Source: an uncultured Desulfurococcales archaeon (GTDB lineage: Archaea > Thermoproteota > Thermoprotei_A > Sulfolobales > WANQ01). From it: 64,000 nt of DNA. This document shows positions 5,612 to 50,873 of the stretch, one piece after another. Numbering within the stretch: position 1 is the stretch's first letter; every line of letters starts with the position of its first letter. The position numbers and the translations under genes are program-made. The notes under the pieces are model-generated. The model had not been told where the DNA came from. It did no database searches and was given only the letters and a program-made list of their open reading frames with translations. The stretch covers positions 43,052-107,051 of the forward strand of contig CAYXRT010000002.1 of assembly GCA_964467535.1 (NCBI GenBank). The letters run 5' to 3'.

Positions 5612-6520
5612 ATGTTATCTTTGCAGTCAAACACCAATATCGATAAACTTAATGAACTTGTTAATAACATATTAAAGGACATAGAACAAATAAGAGAGCA
5701 GATAAAAAGGTTAAAGGAAGAAAGGCATTTGTTAATTGAAGAGATTAGAAGAATGAAAGCTAAACGTATGGAATTAATTTCTCGAGTAAGGAATTTAATT
5801 AATGAAATAAGACGATATAGAGAAGAAAAAAGTAAATTAATAAATGAATTAAGGGATCTCAAAAACAAGAGAAATGAACTAAGAAGTACATTTAAAGAGC
5901 TACTTAATAAGATTAATGAAAAGAGAAAGGAATTAGAACACGTAAGGAGTGCATTAAGAATACCATTATCAAGAATACAAAAGAGGATACAGCAACTTGA
6001 ATGGAAGCAGATGACAAGTGTCTTAACACTTGAGGAAGAGAGAGAACTCATAGAACAAATAGCTAGACTCGAAGAACTACTAGACAAAGCTATAACAGCT
6101 AGGAAAGTGAAGTCAGAAATAGTTAATATAAGAGCTGAAATTAGTAGAATCAAAGTGGAATTAAGCGATGTCATGAAACGGATACGTGAAAAATCCGATG
6201 AGATACAAAAAATAAATAGTCGAATTAATAAACTTGCACATCAAATCAACGAGCTAAGGAGAAACATAGATGAAATTTCAGGTAGGATAAATGAGTCTTC
6301 TGATCAAATAAATGAATTATCTACTAAAATTGATGAACTACAAAAAAAGCTTGTTGAAAAAAGAATGGAATATAAGCGGTTAATAGAACAAATTAATGAG
6401 GAAAGAAAGAAAGAAATTCTAGAAAAGAAGAAAAGAGAAATTAAAGAAAAGGTGGTTAAAACTAAAATGCGTAGGTTAAGTCTTGATGAGCTACGAATAC
6501 TTTATGGTGAGGTTGAATAA
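5612..6520 (+). CDS. Archaeal coiled-coil protein (COG1340-like)
   Basis: Continuous heptads, LEWKQMTSVLTLEEERELIEQI, C-terminal LSLDEL. Confidence 0.75.
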   Translation: MLSLQSNTNIDKLNELVNNILKDIEQIREQIKRLKEERHLLIEEIRRMKAKRMELISRVRNLINEIRRYREEKSKLINELRDLKNKRNELRSTFKELLNKINEKRKELEHVRSALRIPLSRIQKRIQQLEWKQMTSVLTLEEERELIEQIARLEELLDKAITARKVKSEIVNIRAEISRIKVELSDVMKRIREKSDEIQKINSRINKLAHQINELRRNIDEISGRINESSDQINELSTKIDELQKKLVEKRMEYKRLIEQINEERKKEILEKKKREIKEKVVKTKMRRLSLDELRILYGEVE

Positions 6521-6534
6521 TGGTGTCTTAGGTT

Positions 6535-7662
6535 ATGATTAAAAACGGTAACCTAAAAAATAAGGAACCTATAATAATGGTGTTAGCTATAGACATAGAT
6601 GACGATGTTGGTAGAATAGGAATTAGAACCCCAATAATAGGTTTTGAGCAAGTTAAATCAGCTGCCATGAAATATGCATTAACTAGGCCTGAAGATCCAG
6701 ACGTAAATGTACTATTCTCAGCACTAAATATAGCTAAGCAATTAAAGGAGAGAGGACAGAACGTCGAAGTTGCCGTAATCTCTGGTGACGCCTATGATTA
6801 TGTAATGGCAGGTATTAAAGTCCGTGAACAACTTGACATGTTAAGTAGGAAGTACAATATTAAAGGTATCGTCATCGTTAGTGATAGCACTGAAGATGAA
6901 CAGGTGATACCGCTAATTCAAGGTTATGCTCCAATAATTTCAGTCAAGAGGGTTGTTATTGAACAATGGAGAGGAGTCGAAGAGACATTTATACTAATAG
7001 GGAGATACCTAAAGAAGGCTGTTGAAGAACCTAGATTTGCACGAATATTTCTTGGTGTTCCAGGACTTGTAATATTCACTATAAGCTTACTTGCCCTCGT
7101 AGGACTTCTCCACTATGCTCTCGTAGTAGCGTTCACTATTGTAGGAGCATACATGTTTTTAAAAGGGTTTGAATTAGACGTAAAGATAATCAATTGGTGG
7201 AAAGAATCCCCAATTACTTCAACAGCATTGATATTATCGTTTATAGCCATAATTGTAGGCATAACGACAACTTATCATACTATTTTAGCATTAATGCCCG
7301 AAACAGAAACTTCAATTATAACTCTCGCAGGTATTATAATTAATGGTATGCTTCCTTATGTAGGTTTTAGCGTATTAGCATTAATGTCAGCTAGGATTGT
7401 AACTAAGGCTCCAGTAAGCGGTCTAAAAGTATGGCATGACGTATCAATATTAGTAATTTCTGCGCTCATAATAGCTGCCCTGTATGAACTGTCTTCAAGA
7501 TTAGCTAGTCTTCCTCCAACAGCCACATCAATGGATATTGTAAGAACCATTATGGAGTCTCAGATACTTCTCTGGCTCTTTGCCATAATAATTATTTCAA
7601 TAATAGTAACTGCCATTCTTGGATACATAGAAGAGAAGGTTGCTCATAAGAAAGAGAAATGA
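6535..7662 (+). CDS. DUF373 family membrane protein
   Basis: LAIDIDDDVG, PEDPDVN, several C-terminal TM helices. Confidence 0.85.
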   Translation: MIKNGNLKNKEPIIMVLAIDIDDDVGRIGIRTPIIGFEQVKSAAMKYALTRPEDPDVNVLFSALNIAKQLKERGQNVEVAVISGDAYDYVMAGIKVREQLDMLSRKYNIKGIVIVSDSTEDEQVIPLIQGYAPIISVKRVVIEQWRGVEETFILIGRYLKKAVEEPRFARIFLGVPGLVIFTISLLALVGLLHYALVVAFTIVGAYMFLKGFELDVKIINWWKESPITSTALILSFIAIIVGITTTYHTILALMPETETSIITLAGIIINGMLPYVGFSVLALMSARIVTKAPVSGLKVWHDVSILVISALIIAALYELSSRLASLPPTATSMDIVRTIMESQILLWLFAIIIISIIVTAILGYIEEKVAHKKEK

Positions 7663-36102: not shown

Positions 36103-37709
36103 AATTTATAGACAAGCATGTTAAGGAGTAGTACTACTCCTGCTCTATGTGTTAATAGTATTGTATTATCTATAGCTTTCGCTACTACTAGTGTTAAGCT
36201 AATGGATAGTATTGAAAACACCGATAGTAACGTTAATGAAAGTTCATGTACATTTAATTGATATGCTGTAACTAATGTTAATGAACCAATACTGTATGTA
36301 GTTAATGTTTCAAAAAAGTTTGAAAGAGCACTAGTTAATATCAACGAAAGCAAGAAAAATAATGGGGGAAAAGCTATCGAAAGTATCTCATAAAGCTTTA
36401 GATTTGATAATGTTTCTTTCTTAATTTTCTTTATCTCTATTAAATAATCTATCACTTTCTCTATTATACCCGTCATTAAACTCCCTGATAATACTACTAT
36501 GTCAAGTAGGAGTATGAGGTATTTTAGCCTGAAATTCTTAAGTGATTTAGCATAAGTGTATAGCCTTCCTCCATGCCTTAATCTAGCAATTATCTCATTT
36601 AAGGTTCTTGTAAGTACTTTACTATTCGTTTGAAGCGGATTATTTAATAACATTATATCTATTGCATGTCCTATTTTGCTGTGATCTAGTAATTTTCTTA
36701 AAATACTTATTACGTGTTCATCAACATCTTTATATGGTTTATGAATTACTATATAGTTTATTATACCAAACGTTAATAGCCCTATTGACATAGTCAGCAT
36801 ATATAGTTCGCTCAGTTTTAATATATAGTAGCCCTTGAGTATAAAGAAAAATACTGAAGCCATTAGAGTAGTAATTAATATGTTTTTTATTATAGCTTTT
36901 ACTTCAGGTACCGATAGGAATTCACTACTGGGCTTTAATGTATGTATCAATACTATGGATGTAATGGTCATTAATGGTATGAATAAATATGCCTGCATAT
37001 ATAATATCTCAATAACTGTGAACCCCATTAACCACGCTATAGCGACTATTATTGTTGTAGAAAAGCCTATTATCAGGAAGGCTTCAACTATTATAGCTAC
37101 CAATTTGCTCCACTGACTATATTTTCTTGTTAAGTCGTGATATGCTTCACTTATTTGTATATCATAGAATAGCTTGATGTCTCCTCCTTCACTTAAGACT
37201 CTGATGTAACCTTTGGTAAATTTTGAAAAATTTTTTGATGGAGTAAAGTTGCTCAGCGTAGCTAAAGCCTCTATGGGATTTGGATTTATATTTAGTAGTT
37301 CTTTAAGCTTTTTAGATTCTACACCAATTCCTTTGAAACATGTTAGTATTTGTTCAGAAATTAAATAGTCGTAAAGAGGAATCCCTACGCTATCAGCTAT
37401 GCTGGCAAGTACTAGGAAGTATGGTAGTTCACTGTCTATTCTTTGTCTAAGTCCAAGAATTCTAAACTTTATGTATAAATGATATAATGGTAATATACAT
37501 GAAAGGATAGACGCTATGGTTAATGATATGAAGTTCACTAACGTGATCGGCTGAGAATGCATGTATTTGTAAAAGGTATCTATCAATATTATAATTAACG
37601 AGGTAGATCCTATAATATTTACGAGGAATAATAGTTTTAGCTTGGTAATTGTTGTTTCAATACCTGCTACTTTCGATTCATGAATTAAATTTAAGAATAC
37701 GTGTTTCAA
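36057..37709 (-). CDS. Type IV pilus membrane platform protein (TadC/ArlJ-like)
   Basis: IDSELPYF, TPSKNFSKF, two T2SS-F-like halves with many TMs; directly downstream of the pilus ATPase. Confidence 0.8.
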   Translation of the reverse strand: MKHVFLNLIHESKVAGIETTITKLKLLFLVNIIGSTSLIIILIDTFYKYMHSQPITLVNFISLTIASILSCILPLYHLYIKFRILGLRQRIDSELPYFLVLASIADSVGIPLYDYLISEQILTCFKGIGVESKKLKELLNINPNPIEALATLSNFTPSKNFSKFTKGYIRVLSEGGDIKLFYDIQISEAYHDLTRKYSQWSKLVAIIVEAFLIIGFSTTIIVAIAWLMGFTVIEILYMQAYLFIPLMTITSIVLIHTLKPSSEFLSVPEVKAIIKNILITTLMASVFFFILKGYYILKLSELYMLTMSIGLLTFGIINYIVIHKPYKDVDEHVISILRKLLDHSKIGHAIDIMLLNNPLQTNSKVLTRTLNEIIARLRHGGRLYTYAKSLKNFRLKYLILLLDIVVLSGSLMTGIIEKVIDYLIEIKKIKKETLSNLKLYEILSIAFPPLFFLLSLILTSALSNFFETLTTYSIGSLTLVTAYQLNVHELSLTLLSVFSILSISLTLVVAKAIDNTILLTHRAGVVLLLNMLVYKFYSIFSSTLLPDLIG

Positions 37710-40700
37710 GTTAAAACCTCCTTAGATGCTCTCATATAGAATTCCATTATTGCATTAAATACTTCTTCAAGAGATCTTGTCCCTTTGTTCATGAGATTTA
37801 TTATGAATCTCTCTTTCGCTTTTAGCTCATTTTCGAGTTCGCTTAAGTCTATTCCTTTTAGGCTTGCTATTTGCTTTAATCTATAGCTCTTATCTATAAC
37901 TTCGTTTATCGTTAGCGGTATATGTTTATCTCCACGGGGATCCCATGTAAATATCACCTTCTTTGATGGTCCCTGAGGTGTAGGTATTAATTCTACTATT
38001 TCGGTAACTCTTCTGGTATAGCCTCCTTGTTTGAGCTTAACCCTCTTCATAATTACAAAACACCATATGAGGTTTAAGAATCCCTCACTAAGCTCGATGG
38101 GAGGTGATCTTAGTCTAATGAGAGCTGATTCTACACTATCTGCGTGAAATGTACAATTATGGGTTATTACGGATGTACTATGTATGAATGTATGTGTATC
38201 CTTAACTTCAATGTCGTAAGCCCATTCAGGCGTATTTAACTTTACTTCTGAGATTGCAATGACTTCATCTGTAGCTATTCTTACATCATGTAAGCTTGTG
38301 TCATCTGAAACATCCTTATTTAATGTGAGAAGTTTATCACCGGCTCTTATAGACTTCGCCTTTTTAGTTGTTAATCTACCTTCAGAGATTATGGGTAAAG
38401 GATGATTGGGAGTATACTTTAGCTTCCTTCCTTCATTAGTCTCAATTAAAATCCATGATGTGGTTAATGTCTTGTATACTCTCATTATTGGCTTCCATGT
38501 AGGCTTAAGTCCCTTTAGATCAAATGATAACACTCTTATGGGATTATGTATTTCTGTGTAAATGAGTTCATGTACTAGTTCACCGATTTTATGAACTTTG
38601 ATGGTGTTAGTGTTATCCTTTATAAGGATTTTATCTGAATATTCAAGGCACATCGATCCTTGGCCTGTTGCTGCTGCTTGAGCTAAAACTCTTGCCTCCT
38701 CTCCCCTGACTTCACCTATGACTATATATTCTGCTCTTCTTCTTAGGGCAAACTTCGCTAGATCGAATAGTGTAACTTCTAGTCCCTTTGGTGCTATTGA
38801 ATACGTATGCCTGGTTATGAGGGAATCCCAATGTGGATGCATAAGTCTAAGTTCAGGTGTATCTTCTATTGTAACTATTCTGCTGTTTATTGGTATTAAG
38901 TTCAGTAATGCCTGAAGCATAGTTGTATTATGAACAAATATGCCATTGACTTCGAAGTTCTCGGTCTCCGGAATCTCTATGTCGTAGACGTAGCCCTCGT
39001 ATTCCTCTTCTTTAACCCTCACAATCTCGTCGAAGCCCACACCCCTAGGTATGAACTCGTAGAGCTTCTCACCCAGCAACTCTTCGACCCTGTAGAACGA
39101 GGGGTTCTCGCCCTTGTACTTGTAGGAGCGTAGCTCGAAGCTTAGCCTAGTATCTCTTCTATGCTCTTTCCTCTTGAGCATAGACCCTATGGCGTATGCA
39201 ATCTCTGCTGGGATAATGTCGATATCGCTATGATGATTCGTAGACTTCTCTATAGCCTCCTCAATCATCTGCCTCTTCTCTTCGCTAAGCCACTTCATAA
39301 TCTTCCTAAGAGGCTCCTTGTTGATGCTAACCGGTATGAATATACGGTAGTAAACATGGTCAGGGTGCTTCTTTACCCTCTTAGTTCTCAGATATACATG
39401 AACGCCAACACTGGCAAACGCATAGAGAAGGCCATAGGCAAGCTCCACACTCGCAGTAGCAATCACGATAATATACTTTCCAGTATGGATACTGCCGCCC
39501 CCATCAATTATGCCTGCAAGGAACGCTAAACGCCATTCCTCATCCATGTTCCAGAAGATATCGGGAACACGTTTAGTCCTAGCCTTGGGACCAACCTTAT
39601 TTAGTGTGATTTCTCTCTTGTACTCGCCATCATAAATGGCTATGTATCTCATATGTGGCTTACGCTTCTCCGGTGATATACGGTACTGGAAGCCGAGTTC
39701 ATTCATATACTTGATTACATGGTCTAAAATAGGCCCTGTGCTTTGATATAGCCTAGGAGTACTCCCATTAAAGTATCCTTCTGCAACAAAGAACCCGACG
39801 AGATATCCAAATCTTGGGTCAGTTGACTTTCCACTACCTTGGCTATGATTGTGAAGCTCTAGTAGTCTCAAATACGGTAAATAGGTCTTTCGACCTATAC
39901 TGCCGGGATTTACGGATTCAAATGTTATTTTGAACTTATCCTTCTCCGTACCAACTTTCCATACTACAAGGCTGTGGTCGGGGGTTACTTCGATCATTCT
40001 ACCCGTTTTCGTTCTTATATGGTATATTTTGCCTACGTATCTATGTCTTATCAAGTACTTTGGTTTATGCCATTCAATGCCCTTCTCTGTAACTGTTAGT
40101 ATTTCTATGTCGGGATTTTCTATTACCTCCATATTCCCGAGTTTCTTTGCTTCGTATCCTCGTGCAACTAGATTGTTCCACAAACCTTCTATCGTAACTA
40201 AACGTATATTGCCTCCTTGACGTATTAGCATGTGGGATAGTTTTCCCACCGACTTCCCCGATGCTATTCCACCTATTATCATTATGAATGCTTGGTTTTC
40301 TATTAGTGTCCATAGATACGCAGCTTCGAGAGGAGATAAGGTGTTACTATTTACTAGGTCTATTATTGTTAAGGGTATTTGTGGAAACTTTCTAATGACA
40401 AAGCTACTTCCATGAGGTGAAACTTCTCTTAAATATGTTATAGCTATTCTATGCCCTTCCTCTGTTAATCCCTCAGCATAGGGGAAGGCCGTACTAACAT
40501 GAACTCTTGCTTTTCTAGCTAAAGTTAACACAAGGCTATTTAACTCATTTTCAGATAGTGAAATATTCGTATCAAGCCATAAATAATCGGGATAAAGTCT
40601 ATGAAATACTGCTACATTACAATATGGTCTTTCGCACGCTATTTCCTCCACATAAGGATCATTAATTATGGGGTAGAGTATGCCATAGCCACTTAGTACT

Positions 40701-41089
40701 CTATCTATATAGTAATCTATAATCCCTAGCTTTTTCTCCATAAGATCTTGAATGTTTAACTCATAAGCTGCCTTTGTAATTACTTTAGCTCTACTTTTGG
40801 GGTTAAGTAGACTATTGACTCCTCTTGTTGTATAAATATACTCTATTAACTTAACTATTTGATGCTGTACTTCAGGTTCTATTGGAGGTTCTTCAATTAT
40901 ATATCTTACTCCTCCTCTTTCCTTAACTATATATATTTTTGCGAGTTTAACTCCATAAGTGGTTAGAATTTCACCTGTAAGATCTTCAGGTTTAGGTCTT
41001 ATAGGCTTTAATTCATGGTCTTGTATTATGTATGATCTCTCATCTCTACGAGTAATTGATGAGAAAAAATATTTGTTCTTGTTTATCAT
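37706..41089 (-). CDS. Type IV pilus / type II-IV secretion ATPase (VirB11/ArlI family) containing two inteins; ~520 aa after splicing
   Basis: GGIASGK^TT Walker A, TIEDTPEL, IGEVRGEE, TGQG..^CTFHA; two Hint-domain inserts. Confidence 0.92.
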   Translation of the reverse strand: MINKNKYFFSSITRRDERSYIIQDHELKPIRPKPEDLTGEILTTYGVKLAKIYIVKERGGVRYIIEEPPIEPEVQHQIVKLIEYIYTTRGVNSLLNPKSRAKVITKAAYELNIQDLMEKKLGIIDYYIDRVLSGYGILYPIINDPYVEEIACERPYCNVAVFHRLYPDYLWLDTNISLSENELNSLVLTLARKARVHVSTAFPYAEGLTEEGHRIAITYLREVSPHGSSFVIRKFPQIPLTIIDLVNSNTLSPLEAAYLWTLIENQAFIMIIGGIASGKSVGKLSHMLIRQGGNIRLVTIEGLWNNLVARGYEAKKLGNMEVIENPDIEILTVTEKGIEWHKPKYLIRHRYVGKIYHIRTKTGRMIEVTPDHSLVVWKVGTEKDKFKITFESVNPGSIGRKTYLPYLRLLELHNHSQGSGKSTDPRFGYLVGFFVAEGYFNGSTPRLYQSTGPILDHVIKYMNELGFQYRISPEKRKPHMRYIAIYDGEYKREITLNKVGPKARTKRVPDIFWNMDEEWRLAFLAGIIDGGGSIHTGKYIIVIATASVELAYGLLYAFASVGVHVYLRTKRVKKHPDHVYYRIFIPVSINKEPLRKIMKWLSEEKRQMIEEAIEKSTNHHSDIDIIPAEIAYAIGSMLKRKEHRRDTRLSFELRSYKYKGENPSFYRVEELLGEKLYEFIPRGVGFDEIVRVKEEEYEGYVYDIEIPETENFEVNGIFVHNTTMLQALLNLIPINSRIVTIEDTPELRLMHPHWDSLITRHTYSIAPKGLEVTLFDLAKFALRRRAEYIVIGEVRGEEARVLAQAAATGQGSMCLEYSDKILIKDNTNTIKVHKIGELVHELIYTEIHNPIRVLSFDLKGLKPTWKPIMRVYKTLTTSWILIETNEGRKLKYTPNHPLPIISEGRLTTKKAKSIRAGDKLLTLNKDVSDDTSLHDVRIATDEVIAISEVKLNTPEWAYDIEVKDTHTFIHSTSVITHNCTFHADSVESALIRLRSPPIELSEGFLNLIWCFVIMKRVKLKQGGYTRRVTEIVELIPTPQGPSKKVIFTWDPRGDKHIPLTINEVIDKSYRLKQIASLKGIDLSELENELKAKERFIINLMNKGTRSLEEVFNAIMEFYMRASKEVLT
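38156..38650 (-). mobile_element. Mini-intein (165 aa, no homing endonuclease) in the ATPase His-box region
   Basis: Starts CLEYSD, block B TPNHP, ends YDIEV..THN followed by Cys+1. Confidence 0.9.
38927..40252 (-). mobile_element. Intein (442 aa) with a LAGLIDADG homing endonuclease domain, inserted in Walker A
   Basis: Ser1 (SVGK), block B TPDHS, LVGFFVAEG and LAGIIDGGG blocks, YDIEI..VHN followed by Thr+1; visibly higher GC than the host gene. Confidence 0.92.
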
Positions 41090-41109
41090 AATTATTCACG
41101 TCTTAACCA

Positions 41110-41538
41110 CTATTGCACAGTTACCTTTAATGGTTCACTAGTATACGTTCTTCCATTAGCTTGATATGTTACATATAGGACGTGTTGACTCCCTGGTGTA
41201 AGACCAGGGAAAGTTCCTATCAATACAACGTCCTCAATAATGTCGCCGGGGGCTATAGGTCCTAGATTCAAGGATGAAACACTCGTTCCATCGATATAGA
41301 GTCCCGTAACTGTTATTGGCCTTGAGCCCAAGTTCACGATTCTTAGATGAACTATTGACGTTGTGTCATTTACATATACTATTTGTGCCCATAGTCCTAT
41401 TCCTTCACTTCTACTGACTTTATTTACCATTTGACCAAAGTATTGATATATTAGTAGACCGCCTAGGACAGCTATTACTATTAACAGGGTCGTTGCTATC
41501 AATGGTGATAATGCTCTCTTCATTTTATGTGTATTCAT
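41110..41538 (-). CDS. Archaeal type IV pilin
   Basis: Class III signal peptide KRA^LSPLIATTLLIVIAV; first gene of the pilin-ATPase-TadC operon. Confidence 0.88.
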   Translation of the reverse strand: MNTHKMKRALSPLIATTLLIVIAVLGGLLIYQYFGQMVNKVSRSEGIGLWAQIVYVNDTTSIVHLRIVNLGSRPITVTGLYIDGTSVSSLNLGPIAPGDIIEDVVLIGTFPGLTPGSQHVLYVTYQANGRTYTSEPLKVTVQ

Positions 41539-44518: not shown

Positions 44519-44554
44519 GCCAATTTATTCGTTAATGAATTCATGTTAATGCAT

Positions 44555-45574
44555 TTAAGTAGAGCTCTTCTTTAGCTCGATTATTAACTTACCTGATATG
44601 TTCTTTATACTTATATAGCCTAATTTTTCAAGTTTCTTTATACGTCTCCAGAGAGTTGATTTTGGGATATCGGTTTCTTTAGATAATTCAGAAAGAGCTA
44701 GAGAACCTTTGGTTTTTAAAACTGATAGTATTTGTTTATCTCTTTCATCAAGCATACTAGTGACAACTTTTACGCTAACGCTCATTGATCTTTTAATAAT
44801 AGCTATTGCTATGATAATGATTACTGCGGCTATTATAGCTGCTATATATTCCATGGGAAGCGTTATACCTGGAGCTGGTGTAACTGGGGTAGTTATTAGA
44901 GTAGAAGTTGTAGGAGTCGTTGTAGGTGTAGTAGGCGTTGTTATAGGAGTTGTAGTTGGGGTGGTTAGTGGTGAGGTGGGCGTTGCTGGTGAAGGACTAG
45001 TTGGAGTTGTAGTGGGTGTGGTGGGTGTTGAAGTTGGTGTAGTTGTCGTCGGAGTAGTAAGTGTAGGCATAGGGGTTATTGGCGTAGGTGAAAGGGGAAC
45101 TGCTATTACCCTTATCGTAAATTTAATGGAATATTGCCCCGGTTCATCATATTTTATTACTAGTTTATTATCTTCAGCATAAATCATTGCTTTACCTGTT
45201 AAGCTTAATATTGAAGAGTTTTCAGGCAATATAATAGTTGATGGTAAGAATGGTGATACGTTTAAATGCCAAATTCTTCTACTTACGTTTAATAGATTCA
45301 GTGACATATAAAGGACTGTTGTCTTAGAGGCATTTAGCGCATATACCGTTATGTGTGTTCCATTGAAATTGTATGGTATAGGTCTACCCTGATCATCAAA
45401 TACTAAGATGCTTTCCTCAACAACTTCTCCATCAACCGGGATATCTATTGATAGCTTACCTTCGGTATTGATAGTTGTTGTCACCAATACTGTTCCATCA
45501 GTGTAAACTCTGTATATCATGCTACCATTAACCATTGAAAGTGCAATTAACATTAGGAGTAATAATGGCTTCAT
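44555..45574 (-). CDS. Membrane-anchored winged-HTH regulator (signal peptide, extracellular beta domain, Thr/Pro stalk, TM, cytoplasmic wHTH; COG2512-like)
   Basis: MKPLLLLMLIALSMVNG signal; TTPT repeats; TM IAAIIAAVIIIIAIAII; LSELSKETDIPKSTLWRRIKKLEKLGYI. Confidence 0.8.
   Translation of the reverse strand: MKPLLLLMLIALSMVNGSMIYRVYTDGTVLVTTTINTEGKLSIDIPVDGEVVEESILVFDDQGRPIPYNFNGTHITVYALNASKTTVLYMSLNLLNVSRRIWHLNVSPFLPSTIILPENSSILSLTGKAMIYAEDNKLVIKYDEPGQYSIKFTIRVIAVPLSPTPITPMPTLTTPTTTTPTSTPTTPTTTPTSPSPATPTSPLTTPTTTPITTPTTPTTTPTTSTLITTPVTPAPGITLPMEYIAAIIAAVIIIIAIAIIKRSMSVSVKVVTSMLDERDKQILSVLKTKGSLALSELSKETDIPKSTLWRRIKKLEKLGYISIKNISGKLIIELKKSST
44860..45100 (-). repeat. Low-complexity (T)TPT coding repeat, probable O-glycosylated stalk
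   Basis: Degenerate Thr/Pro codon repeats encoding TPTTTTPTSTPTTPTTTP. Confidence 0.8.
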
Positions 45575-45626
45575 AGTCCCACGACTAAAATAGGCACTAA
45601 ATTATTTATTCTTTTACCCAATCACG

Positions 45627-45657
45627 GGAATGAAACAAGGCGTTTCATAGGCATTCC
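45627..45657. promoter_or_regulatory. Palindromic candidate operator between the divergent genes
   Basis: ATGAAAC-N5-GTTTCAT (45630-45648), overlapping an outer GGAATG...CATTCC inverted repeat. Confidence 0.55.
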
Positions 45658-45731
45658 AAGATTATTCCTAGTACATTTTGTCGAATATCTTATACGAAAT
45701 AAAGCTCAAAGCACAAGTAGAGGTGAAATCA

Positions 45732-48700
45732 GTGAGAAAAATCCTAATATTAATGCTAATTGCCCTGCTCATGATACCTAAAGCCATAGTCCTAGAGTCA
45801 CAAATGCAGCCAACAAATGCTATATCACTAGAAACTGATGTAAAGGTACTTACGGAAATTTTATTAAAGAATGCTGAAGACCTTTCACTATACATAAGAC
45901 ATGAATTAAGTGTTCTAAAATCATATGGTATTGAAGTATCTAAGGAAGTATTAAAGCTAATAGAACATTTTGAAGCAGTAGTCAAGGAAGCTAGAGAACT
46001 ATACGATAAGGGAGAATACGATAAAGCATTAAGTGTAGTTAAAAAGGCCTTAAACATAGCCGGTGAAGTACTTGAATCTCTGCCAGAACATCCAGCAATG
46101 ACTATTCCTAAGCTGGAAGTAAAGCTTGAATCAAAGATTGAAAGATTACAGAAAACATTAACTATTAATTTAGAAGCTATCAAGAAAGCTGCGGAGTATA
46201 CAGGAAAAGTAAAGGTACTTGAAGAGGTAAAAGGACTTCGTGAAAAGGTACAGGAGTTATTAAGTAAGGCAAGAGAGCTTAAGGCTCAAGGCGCACTTGA
46301 GGAAGCAGAGAAATTCATTAAACAAGCTGAAGATCTTATCAAAAAAATACATAAGGTAACAGTTAAAGCATCTGAGGAAGTTGGAGTAAAGAAAATTAAG
46401 AATATAAGTGAACTTGTAGAAAAAAGATTATCTAAAGTACTTAAACATATAGAAAAAGTTAAGGAGAAATTCGCGGAAGCAAGGAAATGGATAAACGTAT
46501 CTAAAATACTTATGAAATTTAATGAAATAGAAAAACTAATAAAGAATATACATGAAGATGTAAAGAACCTAGCTAAAGTAGAAAAATTCATTGAAGCTAT
46601 TACAAAGGTTGAAATAAGTATTACAAAGGTAGAGTACGTTGCTAACGTAGCAGTGAAAAGTGTTGAAGAAGTAGAGGAAAGAGTTGAAACATTAGAAAAG
46701 GCAAACATTACGGGATTAGCAAGAGCTGTTTATGAAAAAGCGGATAAACTAAAAGAAATTCTTGGAGGACTAAAAACAGCATTAGAGGCTGTACCCGTCA
46801 TTCCTGCCGAAGTAAAGGAAAAGGTAAGTGAATGTATAAAGCTAGTAGAGGATCTAGCTGAAGAAGTAAAAGAAATCGTTGGAATGATAATTGCTGGTGA
46901 AGTTGAAAAAGCAATAGAAGAGGTAAGTGAAGTTGAAGAGAAAAGCGATAAACTATTAGATACCATTGCAACAATAATCTCAGAGACATCAAAATATCCA
47001 GGACCACATATAGGTATATTAAAGGTACTTGAAAAAGAGACTAAGAACTTACTTGGACTCGTTGAAAAGCTCTTAGAGAAATCATTGAACGTAACTAGTA
47101 AGCTAAAGGAGAAGATAGCAGAAGAAAAGAAAGAACTTATAGAGGGAGCTAAAGAATCAATAGAAAAAGCTAAAGAACTGATAAGCGAGCTATACGACTT
47201 TATAGATGAAATCAAAAATTTAGCTACTAAAATAATCGAAGAGCTCAATATAACTGATAAAATAGCCGATATGATCAAGGAGTATGAATTAGCACTGACA
47301 AAACTTGAGGATGTAAGTGAAGAATTAGATAATATCAGTAAAGGAGTTGAAGAGGGAGTAATAGATCCTATAGACGCTATAGCTAATGTTTCAACGATCA
47401 TAGACTACGTAAAGGAGCTAAAGCTTAGAGTTGAAAATAGAACTCGCGAATCTATAGTGGAGATAACCAACGTAATCAAAGTTAATATCAATACAACAAT
47501 CTCATGGATATCAAGTAATATTGAATACTTTAAACAAGCACCAGAATTAAAAGAAGTTACTGAAAAGCTAAAGCACTATGTAAAAGAATTAACTAGCCTC
47601 CTCGAGAAGGTATACGAGCTACCTAGAAATATAATAAGAGCTCTAGAATACCTACTAGAAGTAATTGAAGACTACAAAGAAATTAGCGGGGAAAGCGAGA
47701 AAATAGTAAAGGAAACCATAGAAGAAATATATGAAAAAGTCAAAGAAATAGCAAAGGAGTTACTTGATAAAATAGAAGAATACTTAGAAGAGACTAGTGA
47801 AATTCTGACACTTGTAGAAAAACCCGCGGAATTACTTAACATCACAAAAGATGTTGAAGAATATCTTGGGTTCTACAAGGATGCCCTGGAAATACTAAAT
47901 ACAACAAAAGAAAACATAAGTGAAATACTTGAGAAAGCAAAGGAAGACCCCATAGGAGCTCTTAATGAAGTTAAGAAAGCTAGCAAATACGTCGAAGAAC
48001 AGTACTCAAAGGTTAAGGAGAAAACTGATGAAGCTATAACTGTAATAAAAGAGAGCTTCGTTACTTACGTAAATAAATCAGTAAGTATACTAACTGATGT
48101 TGAAAAAGACCTACTAAAACTACCAGAAGATAAAGTATCCAAGATAATAGCAAAAATCGATGAAACAATAAGTGAATTACGAGAAGAAATTAAGAAAGTA
48201 AAAGAACTACCCGAAGACCATGTAAAGGCATTAGAGAAGTTATCAATAGCTGTAGAGAAAGGCGTTGAACTTTACAGGGAAACCGAAGGATGCATCAAAT
48301 CCCACGTACATGAACTCTATGTATGGATTAAAGCTGAAATTGAACATTACAGAGAATACTACGAAGAGGGCTATAAAGTTCTTGAAAACGTTACTAGCGA
48401 AGTACATGTAAAAGAGAAGGTTAAAGAGGAGCTTAAGAAGCTTGCTGAACACCTCAAACATTTAGACGAGCTCAAGGAGATGATACCAGAAGAAGTCCCA
48501 GAGAACATAACGATAGCCGTTGACATACTCGTTGAAGTATATGTAGAAACCAATGTAACAATCTCCGAATGCGAACATACAGCCAAGACTGTTGTCAACA
48601 TTACAGTAGAACACGTAGTAAGCATTATGACTAACGCTGAAGTTAATGTTACAAAGACCATGGAGCTGGCATGCAATATTTCGAAGGTAATAGATGCTGA

Positions 48701-49877
48701 AGAAGACATTAAAGAACACATAGAGAAAATTAAACAAGCACTAGAACACATAACAAAGCTCAAAGAGAAAGTAGCTAAAGAATTACCAGATGAAATAATT
48801 AAAGCGGCAACCATGATACATGAAGTATACGTTAGCTTTACTAAAACCATGACTGAAGCAGACGAAGAATTTAACACCACTGTTAGAATAATGGAGCACA
48901 AAGTTGTAGTATGCATAGAACATGAAATTGAGAGAATTACCACATTTAGCAATAACCTTGTAAATGTATCAGTAATGGTGGATATAGACATATCAGTAGA
49001 AATAGAACATGTTATTGCATGTAGGAAGGGATTGGAAGACCTAAAGAAGATATTAGAAGAAGCTAAAGGAACAATAATTGAAAGACTTAACAAGTTAAAT
49101 GAGATATACTTCAAATATAAAGAGCTAGGAAGAGAAGCTGAAGAATATGGTTGGAGTTGTATAGAAAAAGTAACAGACTGTATGTGCAAGAACATTACTG
49201 ATTATGAGAAGTGTGCTGAAGAAGCTAAGAAATGCGTTGAAGAGTTAAAGGATATAGCTCATATAGATAAAGCTATAGAGAAAATTGAAAAGGTTATGAA
49301 GCTTGCTAAAGAAGTAGAAGAAGAACTGAATACTACATTAAAGGAGAAAGATCTAGTCAAAGCTTCATGCTTACTCGTAGAAGCAGCGAAAGACTATGTT
49401 GAACTAAGGAAATGTGCTGAAGAAGCCAAAGAAATAAAGCGTAGAGCTGAGAAATGCCATGAACTAAACATTAAGGAACAGTTTAAGATGCTACTAACAC
49501 TATGTAACGAAACTAAGGAAGTAATGAAAGAGATACGTAGATGTCTTGAAGAGAATATCACACACATACCCGAGGAAATTAAGAAACGAATACTCGAAAG
49601 GATTAAAGCCATAGAGAATTTAATAAATGAATTACCTAAGCTAATCAAAGAATACATCGGAGCAATAATATCAACAGACGAACAACAAGAACAAGAGGTG
49701 CACAAGGCCATTGAGGAACTTAAGAAGAAGGTTGATGAGCTAACACAAAGGGTATGTGATGATCTCAGCAAGTATATGGGAGAACTTGCAAAGAGGTTCA
49801 AAGAATCAATAACGAAACTACTTGAAAAGCTTACAGAAATAGAGAACAAGATGAAAAAAGTAAAAGGAGAAGAATAA
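45732..49877 (+). CDS. Giant secreted alpha-helical tandem-repeat protein (~1380 aa), function unknown
   Basis: GAGGTG SD then GTG at 45732 gives the signal peptide MRKILILMLIALLMIPKA; E/K-rich helices, ~25 N-x-S/T sequons, no C-terminal TM. Confidence 0.8.
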   Translation: MRKILILMLIALLMIPKAIVLESQMQPTNAISLETDVKVLTEILLKNAEDLSLYIRHELSVLKSYGIEVSKEVLKLIEHFEAVVKEARELYDKGEYDKALSVVKKALNIAGEVLESLPEHPAMTIPKLEVKLESKIERLQKTLTINLEAIKKAAEYTGKVKVLEEVKGLREKVQELLSKARELKAQGALEEAEKFIKQAEDLIKKIHKVTVKASEEVGVKKIKNISELVEKRLSKVLKHIEKVKEKFAEARKWINVSKILMKFNEIEKLIKNIHEDVKNLAKVEKFIEAITKVEISITKVEYVANVAVKSVEEVEERVETLEKANITGLARAVYEKADKLKEILGGLKTALEAVPVIPAEVKEKVSECIKLVEDLAEEVKEIVGMIIAGEVEKAIEEVSEVEEKSDKLLDTIATIISETSKYPGPHIGILKVLEKETKNLLGLVEKLLEKSLNVTSKLKEKIAEEKKELIEGAKESIEKAKELISELYDFIDEIKNLATKIIEELNITDKIADMIKEYELALTKLEDVSEELDNISKGVEEGVIDPIDAIANVSTIIDYVKELKLRVENRTRESIVEITNVIKVNINTTISWISSNIEYFKQAPELKEVTEKLKHYVKELTSLLEKVYELPRNIIRALEYLLEVIEDYKEISGESEKIVKETIEEIYEKVKEIAKELLDKIEEYLEETSEILTLVEKPAELLNITKDVEEYLGFYKDALEILNTTKENISEILEKAKEDPIGALNEVKKASKYVEEQYSKVKEKTDEAITVIKESFVTYVNKSVSILTDVEKDLLKLPEDKVSKIIAKIDETISELREEIKKVKELPEDHVKALEKLSIAVEKGVELYRETEGCIKSHVHELYVWIKAEIEHYREYYEEGYKVLENVTSEVHVKEKVKEELKKLAEHLKHLDELKEMIPEEVPENITIAVDILVEVYVETNVTISECEHTAKTVVNITVEHVVSIMTNAEVNVTKTMELACNISKVIDAEEDIKEHIEKIKQALEHITKLKEKVAKELPDEIIKAATMIHEVYVSFTKTMTEADEEFNTTVRIMEHKVVVCIEHEIERITTFSNNLVNVSVMVDIDISVEIEHVIACRKGLEDLKKILEEAKGTIIERLNKLNEIYFKYKELGREAEEYGWSCIEKVTDCMCKNITDYEKCAEEAKKCVEELKDIAHIDKAIEKIEKVMKLAKEVEEELNTTLKEKDLVKASCLLVEAAKDYVELRKCAEEAKEIKRRAEKCHELNIKEQFKMLLTLCNETKEVMKEIRRCLEENITHIPEEIKKRILERIKAIENLINELPKLIKEYIGAIISTDEQQEQEVHKAIEELKKKVDELTQRVCDDLSKYMGELAKRFKESITKLLEKLTEIENKMKKVKGEE

Positions 49878-50065
49878 AGTAAATTTTTAATATTTTTCTC
49901 AATTTACCGTTAGCATTATATGCGGTTTATAAGTAAGGATGCTCTTATATTGCAATTATTCACTAGATTCTATTGAAATAAAGGCAAATGGTACCACCTT
50001 TATTAAACAGCACCGTTACTTAAACTTCAAAGAATGCTATAAATTCATGATAACAGAAGTGATGG

Positions 50066-50602
50066 TTGAAGATCATGAATCCTCGTTTGATTGAGAAAAC
50101 TATAGCTTCTTGTAAGAAATGTATATTTATTGACAAACCTCCTTGCATTTATCATGTGTATAAAAGATTTCTACCAGGTATAGTTAAAGTATTAGTAGTT
50201 AGCGAATCTCCCCCTCCAGGAAATAAATCTGATTACTTATATAACCTAGATCATAGTGATAGATTAAGAAAGGTATTAGCTAGAATTTTTAACATTCCAA
50301 GCACTGAAGTAATTAATTATCTTGTCAAGAATAATATATTTTGGACTACAGCTGTAAAATGTAGACCTATTTCAAAGAAATACATAGAAATTATGAGAAG
50401 GAATTGTCTTTACATATTGGACTTAGAGATTAAGGAACTTAAACCCAGGAAAATAATCGCATTAGGAACTATAGCTAGAAAATCAGTTAATGAACTAAGG
50501 ATAGAGAATATACCTATAGAAAAACACTACCATCCACTCTATTTAGCTAGATTTCACAAAAATAATCTTCAGAGTCTAAGAAGCTTAATTTTAGGTGATT
50601 AA
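50066..50602 (+). CDS. Uracil-DNA glycosylase superfamily protein
   Basis: CKKC, VVSESPP, TAVKCRP, IIALG, HYHPLY. Confidence 0.75.
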   Translation: MKIMNPRLIEKTIASCKKCIFIDKPPCIYHVYKRFLPGIVKVLVVSESPPPGNKSDYLYNLDHSDRLRKVLARIFNIPSTEVINYLVKNNIFWTTAVKCRPISKKYIEIMRRNCLYILDLEIKELKPRKIIALGTIARKSVNELRIENIPIEKHYHPLYLARFHKNNLQSLRSLILGD

Positions 50603-50637
50603 TGCTGGGATCAATTTCATGATAATTAATTATGAAA

Positions 50638-50694
50638 AATCAGCTGAGACAGGTGCAGTCATTTCTTTATCCTTTCTCCCGTGTTCATCATCCA
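50638..50694 (-). ncRNA. Probable box C/D guide sRNA
   Basis: Minus strand: ATGATGA-acacgggagaaa-(degenerate D'/C')-gcacctgtctcag-CTGA; terminal boxes perfect and ~52 nt apart. Confidence 0.7.
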
Positions 50695-50873
50695 TAATGT
50701 TTTTGGCGTTCTAGCTTATTTATACTTTATCTATCATTTCTAATATGTCATGAAATGTATTTTTTCTACAATATTTACAATAGACATATATTTGTTTAAA
50801 GTCCTTAATATTGTAGCTAACATACAACACCATTACATTACCACATTCTCTACACCTTATTTTCCAAGGCATG

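Follow-up and report, generated by a model that had tools for sequence, protein, structure and literature searches.

How do archaea sense the state of their cell surface and adjust it? To our knowledge this is largely unknown, and the archaeal membrane-bound one-component regulators that we know of come mainly from the ArnR type. Two head-to-head genes of an uncultured Desulfurococcales archaeon bear on this question. They lie in a stretch of 64,000 nucleotides (GenBank assembly GCA_964467535.1, contig CAYXRT010000002.1, positions 43,052 to 107,051 of the forward strand), referred to below as the window, that is, the whole stretch of DNA that was analysed. The original prediction, made from the letters alone, had placed the two genes about 157 bp apart, between the genes for topoisomerase VI (topo VI) and a UDG-like protein, and both open reading frames (ORFs) are confirmed at these positions:

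44555-45574, minus strand: gene 1, an ORF of 339 aa, encoding a type-I single-pass membrane protein with a C-terminal winged helix-turn-helix (HTH) domain.
45732-49877, plus strand: gene 2, an ORF of 1381 aa, encoding a secreted, anchorless, all-helical repeat protein with 25 N-x-S/T sequons.

Is one of these genes a sensor which controls the other? Comparison across the phylum indicates that gene 1 and gene 2 are very probably the local form of a functionally linked two-gene module. The best explanation of gene 1, and one which on balance we consider to hold, is that it is a transmembrane one-component regulator controlling its secreted partner, gene 2. In the next paragraphs we set out the evidence from gene linkage, from a DNA element shared by the partner promoters and from the anatomy of both proteins, before the alternatives are weighed.

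The linkage was examined in two sets of loci chosen by the regulator alone. The first set comprised 16 loci, selected only as good matches to gene 1 in related genomes. In nine of them the regulator gene adjoins a gene for a protein of 444-691 aa with an N-terminal hydrophobic leader, no other transmembrane (TM) segment and many sequons, if L049 is included, where another gene stands between regulator and partner; L035, L037, L038, L039, L042, L043 and L047 are without a partner. The second set took the best match to the extracellular beta domain of gene 1 from each of 20 further families, the gene context not being known beforehand. Here, 15 of the 20 loci have an immediate neighbour which carries a leader and matches the partner profile with E-values from 2e-8 to 8e-32 (309-678 aa), and L051, L053, L054, L059 and L061 have none. 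In the combined sets, a secreted, sequon-rich helical protein of 309-691 aa is the neighbour in 24/36 loci, and the earlier suggestion that the two genes form a functional unit, for which precisely such a neighbourhood analysis had been proposed, is borne out. All four relative orientations of regulator and partner occur, and the linkage is therefore not merely a matter of shared operon transcription.

The ordinary partners are evidently homologous to the first ~550 residues of the gene 2 protein. When gene 2 residues 1-560 served as the jackhmmer query, 12 of the 282 locus ORFs were picked up, and each of the 12 has a beta-domain gene for a neighbour (11 adjoin it and one has a gene between), with the reservation that iteration may let the profile of a helical protein so rich in Glu and Lys drift, as seen in weak matches (E 4e-11 to 2e-6) to four non-partner ORFs of the second set. 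Pairwise searches lead to the same proteins by another route. P0027 (557 aa) is collinear with gene 2 residues 39-544 (E 6e-21), and P0028 and P0029 are further collinear short homologues; in phmmer searches, P0027 (3.4e-12) and P0028 (8.6e-12) bridge from gene 2 to the partners of L040, L046, L048 and L034, and both are tied to all three genome-encoded giants. The partner of L044, which jackhmmer missed, is linked by phmmer to the partners of L041 and L050. The partners also share an excess of sequons, with 393 observed against 106.5 expected in 28 proteins (23 of the 28 at p<0.01) and a density of 2.5 per 100 aa vs 0.48 in the other ORFs of the same loci. A search of the window's own genome with the L040 partner found no second ordinary partner, the best match reaching 16 bits.

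Two further arrangements were observed around these loci. In L051 and L053 (family f58), the regulator stands between a leaderless protein of ~656 aa and a protein of ~670 aa with a leader and a C-terminal TM segment; a multi-TM protein of ~1030 aa adjoins, and there is no helical partner. In three other loci, a protein of ~140 aa with an N-terminal winged HTH (HTH_5/IclR/LexA-type in Pfam) and two C-terminal hydrophobic segments lies beside the module, and it may represent a second kind of module-linked membrane-bound HTH protein. Its positions within these loci are as follows:

L034, 8181-8603, minus strand: ~140-aa HTH protein.
L037, 6619-7056, plus strand: ~140-aa HTH protein.
L045, 5692-6129, minus strand: ~140-aa HTH protein.

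The intergenic region between gene 1 and gene 2 contains two features of interest for the control of the partner gene:

45630-45648, no strand: candidate operator ATGAAAC-N5-GTTTCAT, an inverted repeat in the divergent intergenic region.
45654-45666, plus strand: TTCCAAGATTATT, read from the sequence as a possible B recognition element (BRE)/TATA-like box of gene 2, 5 nt after the operator.

The candidate operator is the sole site of the form TGAAAC-N3-9-GTTTCA in the 2.32-Mb genome, in which the reversed control pattern does not occur. Since about one such site is expected genome-wide by chance according to our estimate, its location and not its uniqueness is informative. It is also the only TGAAAC pair within 40 bp in the window, and half-site pairs lie 64-92 bp upstream of the related giants in the two other genomes that encode one (G041 and G042, described below), one pair direct and one inverted. 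The element was then sought in the 160 bp upstream of 24 partner genes, the three discovery loci (window, G041, G042) being left out. Among 2080 strand-collapsed hexamers, GTTTCA/TGAAAC ranks first, being present in 15/24 partner upstream regions vs 46/430 others (Fisher p 8.3e-9), an enrichment that survives correction for 2080 tests; next in the ranking come overlapping hexamers and TTCCTT/TCCTTA. Pairs of half-sites within 30 bp occur in 13/71 upstream regions of module genes, from 10 distinct loci, vs 1/417 others (p 6e-11), and the sole control region with a pair shares the L057 intergenic region with a partner.

The position of the half-sites relative to the promoter recurs as well. Their spacing is mostly 10-12 or 19-22 bp, inverted or direct, and in partner promoters a few bases separate their end from the TTCCTTAA/TATA-like box that follows. 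The layout seen in the window, an operator followed after about 5 nt by the box, is found again in other partner promoters with TTCCTTAAC or TTCCTTATT; two distant loci read TGAAAC-GCGGC-GTTTCA-N5-TTCCTTA, and the window reads TGAAAC-AAGGC-GTTTCA-TAGGCA-TTCCAAGATTATT. Even where the regulator gene lies upstream on the same strand, the element is present in the partner promoter, within a gap of 80-200 bp. A first scan of 16 other loci for the half-site upstream of the regulators found it in none. The element marks the promoter of the partner and not the regulators' own.

The anatomy of gene 1 is that of a protein with a domain on either side of the membrane:

45110-45526, minus strand: extracellular beta-sandwich domain, residues 17-155 (block pLDDT 95-98 over residues 21-150).
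44870-45097, minus strand: Thr/Pro-rich stalk, residues ~160-235, predicted disordered (block pLDDT 45-62; composition).
44783-44854, minus strand: TM helix, residues 241-264 (hydropathy windows up to 2.91 and the model).
44570-44761, minus strand: cytoplasmic winged HTH, residues 272-335, about 8-12 residues after the TM helix (Pfam and fold).

Hydropathy, Pfam and AlphaFold2 agree on these parts, just as had been read from the sequence. Hydrophobic segments are confined to residues 2-23 and about 234-271, and the signal peptides of gene 1 and gene 2 are a reading of such N-terminal hydrophobic segments. The protein is rich in Thr (16.5%) and Pro (9.4%). Its AlphaFold2 model, built with an alignment of 28 sequences (mean pLDDT 81.5), comprises a beta sandwich (17-154), an unstructured part (about 155-240), a TM helix (241-264) and a winged HTH (277-334). 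Pfam HTH_24 matches residues 275-321 (E 2.4e-12), and the fold is MarR/ArsR-like (Z 10-12). The recognition helix is PKSTLWRRIKKLE; across the 39 family members listed, its motif P[KR][ST]T.WR, with basic residues after it, is almost unchanged, which fits the conserved half-site and counts in favour of control by gene 1. For neither gene 1 nor gene 2 is there an NCBIfam match above cut-off or an ESM Atlas match of at least 0.9.

Variation was noted in the stalk and in a second copy. At 45000-45046, contigs from three runs (X1-X3) reach 45046, insert 19 other letters and restart at 45000, a form consistent with a stalk allele 66 nt longer (22 codons, in frame). The second family member of the genome (L033, G000:C1:184000-197000, at 6213-7176 on the minus strand) is split: beta domain, stalk and TM helix stop at a TAA, and the winged HTH resumes in another frame just downstream. 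The split may be genuine, or it may reflect a frameshift or an error of sequencing, and no partner gene adjoins.

A profile built from the beta domain alone, excluding the other parts of the protein, matches 197/401 genomes sampled across the phylum, 174/335 high-quality genomes and 88/162 genera, mostly in ORFs of 270-460 aa; family f13 has it in only 1/15 sampled genomes. The gene 1 domain is 25-47% identical to 27 aligned relatives and 20% to one other, and its match to the family profile (E 5.1e-50) is circular, the window sequence being included in the profile. No Pfam model matches any of 21/21 domain sequences, and a search of PDB sequences with the profile gave nothing below E 0.69. 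By fold, the best non-HTH matches are human ribophorin I (6s7o_E, Z 12.0, rmsd 2.5 over 142 residues) and yeast Ost1 (6c26_1, Z 11.9), with Foldseek E-values of 4.5e-5 to 2.3e-4 and coverage of one of the two luminal subdomains of Ost1; the N-domains of M1/M61 aminopeptidases also resemble the beta domain (Z 10.8-10.9). Pfam Ribophorin_I (PF04597) matches 0/21 beta domains and, above cut-off, is found in 0/41 genomes of the window's order, and a Ribophorin_I cluster at rank 15 of the ESM Atlas search (score 0.77) is a weak lead. The model-based link of the beta domain to Ost1 is accordingly treated as a lead, not as family membership.

The gene 2 protein combines a part common to the ordinary partners with a long addition:

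45720-45726, plus strand: GAGGTGA, Shine-Dalgarno-like, 6 nt before GTG 45732 (read from sequence).
45807-47411, plus strand: N-terminal ~535 residues (26-560), the part common to ordinary partners (collinear short homologues, phmmer, jackhmmer).
46998-47024, plus strand: PGPHIGILK motif, residues 423-431, invariant columns among the aligned homologues.
47412-49874, plus strand: C-terminal ~820-residue extension with ~97/194-residue helical repeats and 16/17 cysteines.

The reading frame is open from TTG 45678 to 49877 on the plus strand. The start is best placed at GTG 45732, which results in the 157-bp gap to gene 1, because the GAGGTGA lies 6 nt 5' of it, the hydrophobic leader begins there and the full-length homologues can be aligned from this position onwards. 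Of the 19-residue windows, those with a hydropathy above 1.6 start only at residues 1-7, with no hydrophobic segment after residue 25, and gene 2 is for this reason taken to have no membrane anchor. The protein contains 17.5% Glu and 14% Lys, and its 25 sequons compare with 4.5 +/- 2.0 expected, a number reached in 0/2000 shuffles. The sequence repeats itself at intervals of ~97 and ~194 residues (best E 2.6e-10). The AlphaFold2 model (residues 1-1200, three sequences) is all-helical; its mean pLDDT is 60.5, and between residues 330 and 770 the block means are 62-89, for the most part above 70. Helices of 55-81 residues and shorter ones of 23-32 alternate, interrupted by loops. A signal peptide, a helical body of ~1380 aa and no anchor had been expected from the start, and hydropathy and the model agree with this. 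Foldseek of the model found no solved structure at E<=1e-3, the weak top rows being vinculin, talin and catenin, and Pfam gave no match above cut-off.

How rare is a partner of this size? Among 5.8 billion proteins, a word-indexed search found two homologues, P0001 and P0002 (1366 and 1365 aa, 25% identity, 96-97% coverage), and from 1.84 billion representatives a HMMER scan yielded a single full-length cluster and two fragments, followed by shorter proteins. Gene 2 reads as an ordinary partner lengthened by ~820 residues of internal repeats. Of its cysteines, 16/17 lie at residues 854-1342 (48291-49757), in the C-terminal third, and only C1242 is conserved in P0001/P0002; they may staple the added repeats by disulfides in a lineage-specific manner. 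In the class, of which 351 genomes were searched, a full-length giant is encoded only in the window's genome and in G041 and G042, which are one genus of another order, and none was found in 7 other genomes of the window's family. The giant size is a rare expansion and not the defining feature of the module. The original prediction, which had made the giant protein part of the system, therefore stands as regards a secreted helical partner and not as regards size, ordinary partners having ~310-690 aa.

The loci of G041 and G042 are informative in that a relative of gene 1 stands on either side of the giant. The downstream one, which is convergent, encodes 339/336 aa with the gene 1 architecture, including the HTH; the upstream one, divergent and ~150 bp away, encodes 220/228 aa with beta domain, stalk and TM helix and no HTH. 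The four beta domains are the closest relatives of that of gene 1 (41, 40, 47 and 37% identity in a whole-protein alignment), and the five form one clade with support of 91/84, below the tree tool's 'starred' level. Within it, gene 1 groups with the HTH-less copies (90/84); L039 and L040, regulators of the window's own family, stand elsewhere in the tree. It appears that the giant and its cognate membrane protein moved, or persisted, together as one cassette.

The surroundings of the pair were examined for signs of artefact or insertion. By Pfam, the flanking genes encode topo VI B and A, a UDG-superfamily protein, an ASCH protein and RadA. The junctions from top6A through gene 1, the intergenic region and gene 2 to the UDG-like gene are all bridged by contigs of two public runs, one of which may be the source sample of the window, and the arrangement is hence not an assembly artefact. 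In a strain variant, 14/16 differences in the gene 1 beta domain, counted from the listed positions, fall at third codon positions, and 0 of the listed differences fall in the 157-bp intergenic region; we read this pattern as suggestive of selection in nature and count it in favour of control by gene 1. The interval from top6A to the ASCH gene (44519-50873, ~6.3 kb) is made up of gene 1, gene 2 and the UDG-like gene. In G002 and G003, two related genera, it measures ~0.2-0.6 kb and holds none of these three, top6A being followed directly by the ASCH gene and RadA, with a 118-aa ORF between in one of them. The pair thus evidently sits in a ~6-kb insertion that these two genera lack. A repeat search found no att-like direct-repeat pair flanking it. 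Rfam gave just two sub-threshold CRISPR-repeat rows between 44400 and 51000 (E 0.41 and 0.68), and a scan for sigma-70 promoters and terminators, a model not applicable to archaea, gave none above shuffles.

Three observations concern the neighbourhood itself. In the same-genus genome G001, the contig is broken inside top6A. A ~60-nt stretch at ~50640-50700 (minus strand) is covered by short contigs at a depth of up to ~230 vs ~20 around it in all four runs; read on the minus strand it runs from ATGATGA to CTGA, which resembles a small RNA of the C/D-box kind. The stretch is single-copy in its own genome and has no Rfam match. At 37706-41538 of the window, a secretion/pilus-type ATPase (Pfam T2SSE) is split by an intein with two intein-splicing stretches and a LAGLIDADG domain, and beside it lies a protein of 142 aa whose hydrophobic N-terminus is pilin-like and which matches CARDB weakly.

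How might such a module work? In the explanation that we prefer, the beta sandwich of gene 1 would lie outside, held off the membrane by the Thr/Pro stalk, and one TM helix would connect it to the winged HTH ~10 residues inside. Gene 2 would be the secreted, N-glycosylated helical-repeat partner of the module, with no anchor of its own. The HTH, which quite probably acts on the TGAAAC element, would bind phased TGAAAC/GTTTCA half-sites directly upstream of the promoter box of the partner, here at 45630-45648, and this binding would set partner transcription, in either direction. Archaeal activators usually sit directly upstream of BRE/TATA. In the window, the same operator may also affect the divergent gene 1. 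The linker of only about 8-12 residues between TM helix and HTH implies that the promoter would be drawn to and held at the membrane face, as has been proposed for bacterial ToxR-type proteins, or that the HTH would be released by being cut free. The outside domain would report on conditions at the cell surface, in the simplest case by binding to the partner, and such binding would create a feedback loop and, at the same time, a tether for the anchorless partner. That HTH-less copies stand beside the giants of G041 and G042 points to a function of this kind for the outside part itself; a contact between the two proteins is putative and is put forward tentatively. The sequences establish how the two proteins are built, that their genes are linked, that the partners are homologous, that sequons are in excess and that an element of the partner promoter is conserved. 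It is we who infer that the gene 1 HTH rather than another factor binds the element, and likewise the sign of regulation, the contact of the beta domain with the partner and the nature of the signal.

Several points weigh against control by gene 1. Single half-sites are common, with 37 in the window and 46/430 control upstream regions containing one, and the element could belong to another factor. An exact half-site is absent from 9/27 partner promoters, some of which are probably operon-internal. The upstream regions of the regulators themselves carry the element in 4/38 cases, which is background level, and autoregulation is therefore not a general feature. The earlier claim that the HTH controls the giant protein does predict what is seen of the palindrome, which belongs to a conserved cis-element before the partner gene. 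Furthermore, 12/36 regulator loci have no adjoining partner, and beta-domain copies without an HTH exist (L025, L026 and L034, the last also beside a partner), from which it follows that the outside part has a role independent of the HTH. The short linker predicted for gene 1 and the low confidence of the gene 2 model (pLDDT 60.5) are to be added, and loci from related genomes are not fully independent, so that the p-values are indicative only.

The same HTH-less copies lead to a different view, in which gene 1 is a structural anchor: beta domain, stalk and TM helix would form a pedestal which holds the helical glycoprotein at the surface as a fibre, spacer or sheath, and the HTH would be secondary, tying the locus or chromosome to the membrane or being dispensable. 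An anchorless gene 2 beside a gene 1 with a long stalk and TM helix is what this view expects, and so are HTH-less copies which stand divergent beside the G041/G042 giants and beside a partner in L034, the grouping of gene 1 with such copies (90/84) and a sequon excess which marks the partners as surface glycoproteins. It leaves two things unexplained, however, namely the conserved DNA element in the partner promoters and the near-invariant recognition helix. We regard it as possible though doubtful as an account on its own; it is compatible with control by gene 1, and both may hold. That the two genes are unrelated and were joined by insertion is scarcely credible. The pair does lie in a ~6-kb segment absent from the same site in G002/G003, and no giant turned up in 7 further genomes of the family, but linkage in 24/36 independently chosen loci and in both other giant loci already contradicts chance, as does the shared promoter element.

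Two known systems suggest other roles for the same parts. By analogy with cpxP and cpxRA, the helical partner might be a pseudoperiplasmic chaperone or inhibitor which keeps the sensor off until damage titrates it away and the regulator induces more. The divergent or adjacent placement of a sensor and a secreted helical protein, with a control site in the partner's promoter, suits such a stress module, and some partners show weak YfdX similarity (27.2 bits for L034 at a cut-off of 26.6, and 16.9-23.5, below it, for others). Gene 2 has no match to YfdX, CpxP or Spy in Pfam or NCBIfam, though, and a heavily sequon-bearing repeat rod of 1381 aa would make an odd chaperone, so that we consider this unlikely. 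Still less probable is a helper of the Ost1/ribophorin type, in which the beta domain would aid translocation or N-glycosylation of the sequon-dense partner and the HTH would bring the partner gene to the membrane site. The fold matches (Z 12.0 and 11.9), the shared type-I topology, the extreme sequon richness of the partners and, as a lead only, the Atlas cluster at rank 15 (0.77) speak for it, and OST1 is present in TACK and Asgard archaea according to the excerpt available (PMC11417166). Set against this are the absence of Ribophorin_I above cut-off from 21 beta domains and from 41 genomes of the order, the almost equally good M1/M61 N-domains (Z 10.8-10.9), which make a common sandwich conceivable, and the match to one of two luminal subdomains of Ost1; no link to the oligosaccharyltransferase AglB is shown, AglB not having been searched for. 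A bolder version, which we hold to be very improbable, would make the beta-domain proteins the phylum's counterparts of Ost1/ribophorin I, membrane docks gripping the client promoter by a winged HTH and coupling transcription, translation, export and N-glycosylation, with the client of the window's lineage grown to a rod of ~1400 residues. If true, this would mean gene-specific membrane recruitment in archaea, and possibly an early stage of the ribophorin-ribosome link of Asgard archaea and eukaryotes.

With control of gene 2 by gene 1 as the preferred explanation, the pair can be compared with regulators already described. In the excerpt available of a survey, transmembrane transcription regulators (TTRs) are proteins with a DNA-binding domain and TM region(s) in one chain, and 1,384 archaeal TTRs are counted, enriched in Thermoproteota (PMC10269533). 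Gene 1 falls within this definition, a predicted DNA-binding domain plus at least one predicted TM segment, by its HTH_24 match (E 2.4e-12) and TM helix (241-264). Like gene 1, the TTRs ToxR, CadC and TcpP are thought to act on DNA from the membrane. ToxR and CadC carry an N-terminal OmpR-type winged HTH inside and a C-terminal sensor outside. In gene 1 this order is reversed (sensor-like domain, TM, HTH), the N-out/C-in topology already noted in the original prediction being confirmed, and the HTH is of HTH_24/MarR/ArsR type, not OmpR type. Gene 1 adds to the TTR plan a cleavable-looking signal peptide, a stalk and a linked gene for a dedicated secreted partner, and neither its family nor the partner is described in the excerpt of the survey (PMC10269533). 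ArnR and ArnR1 of Sulfolobus acidocaldarius are, in the part of the source available, membrane-bound one-component regulators of surface structures (PMC6396743). Their targets are archaellum and pilus genes, whereas the gene linked to gene 1 encodes a secreted helical partner. ArnR has an N-terminal HTH, C-terminal TM helices and no large extracellular domain. Gene 1 is not of the ArnR/ArnR1 type, its HTH being C-terminal after a single TM helix. Pfam DUF7343 (PF24034, cut-off 27.6 bits) matches 7/20 sampled relatives above cut-off and 12/20 at E<=1e-4; for gene 1 it is not listed at E<=0.1, HTH_24 and related models appearing instead, and gene 1 is apparently a diverged relative of the DUF7343-carrying proteins. 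DUF7343 covers the HTH only, and the outside domain and the partner have no Pfam model.

Further comparisons concern the outside domain and the partner. Ribophorin I/Ost1 shares with gene 1 the type-I topology, and its membrane-proximal beta sandwich is one which the gene 1 domain resembles at Z about 12, the M1/M61 N-domains scoring almost as well; it has two sandwiches vs one, and no sequence-profile match connects them. Its cytosolic part is a four-helix bundle binding ribosomes, in the excerpt available (PMC11417166), where gene 1 instead has a winged HTH. The CpxP-CpxA system of Gram-negative bacteria resembles the module in that a secreted helical protein, encoded beside a membrane sensor, is itself a regulated target, as proposed for gene 2; there is no homology. 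Cpx is a two-component system, and CpxP is small and unglycosylated. A YfdX/CpxP-type identity of gene 2 was rejected, no YfdX match being found (cut-off 26.6 bits). Tetrabrachion and spectrin-type rods are, like gene 2, very long secreted or structural all-helical repeat proteins, here in a hyperthermophile-type genome. Tetrabrachion is anchored in the membrane at its C-terminus, and its four-stranded stalk is continuous. Gene 2 is no such stalk, as it has no hydrophobic segment after residue 25 and its helices of at most 81 residues are loop-broken in a low-confidence model. The spectrin plan consists of tandem three-helix bundles of ~106 residues; gene 2 has repeats of ~97/194 residues with alternating helices, no Pfam Spectrin match and no fold match at E<=1e-3, and may be spectrin-like in plan as far as the model goes. 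The colossal S-layer proteins of a preprint (10.64898/2026.08.21.746120) are, in the excerpt available, Ig-domain proteins and unrelated to gene 2. Among open-access papers and preprints, we found none describing the beta domain or the partner family.

The central inference, that of a sensor-regulator paired with a secreted target, gains strong comparative support from these genomes, at the level of sequence. It concerns a protein family which is found in about half of the sampled genomes of its phylum and comes with a fixed partner gene and a predicted operator, and in the lineage of the window the partner is a surface protein which would have grown about 2.5-fold through internal repeats.

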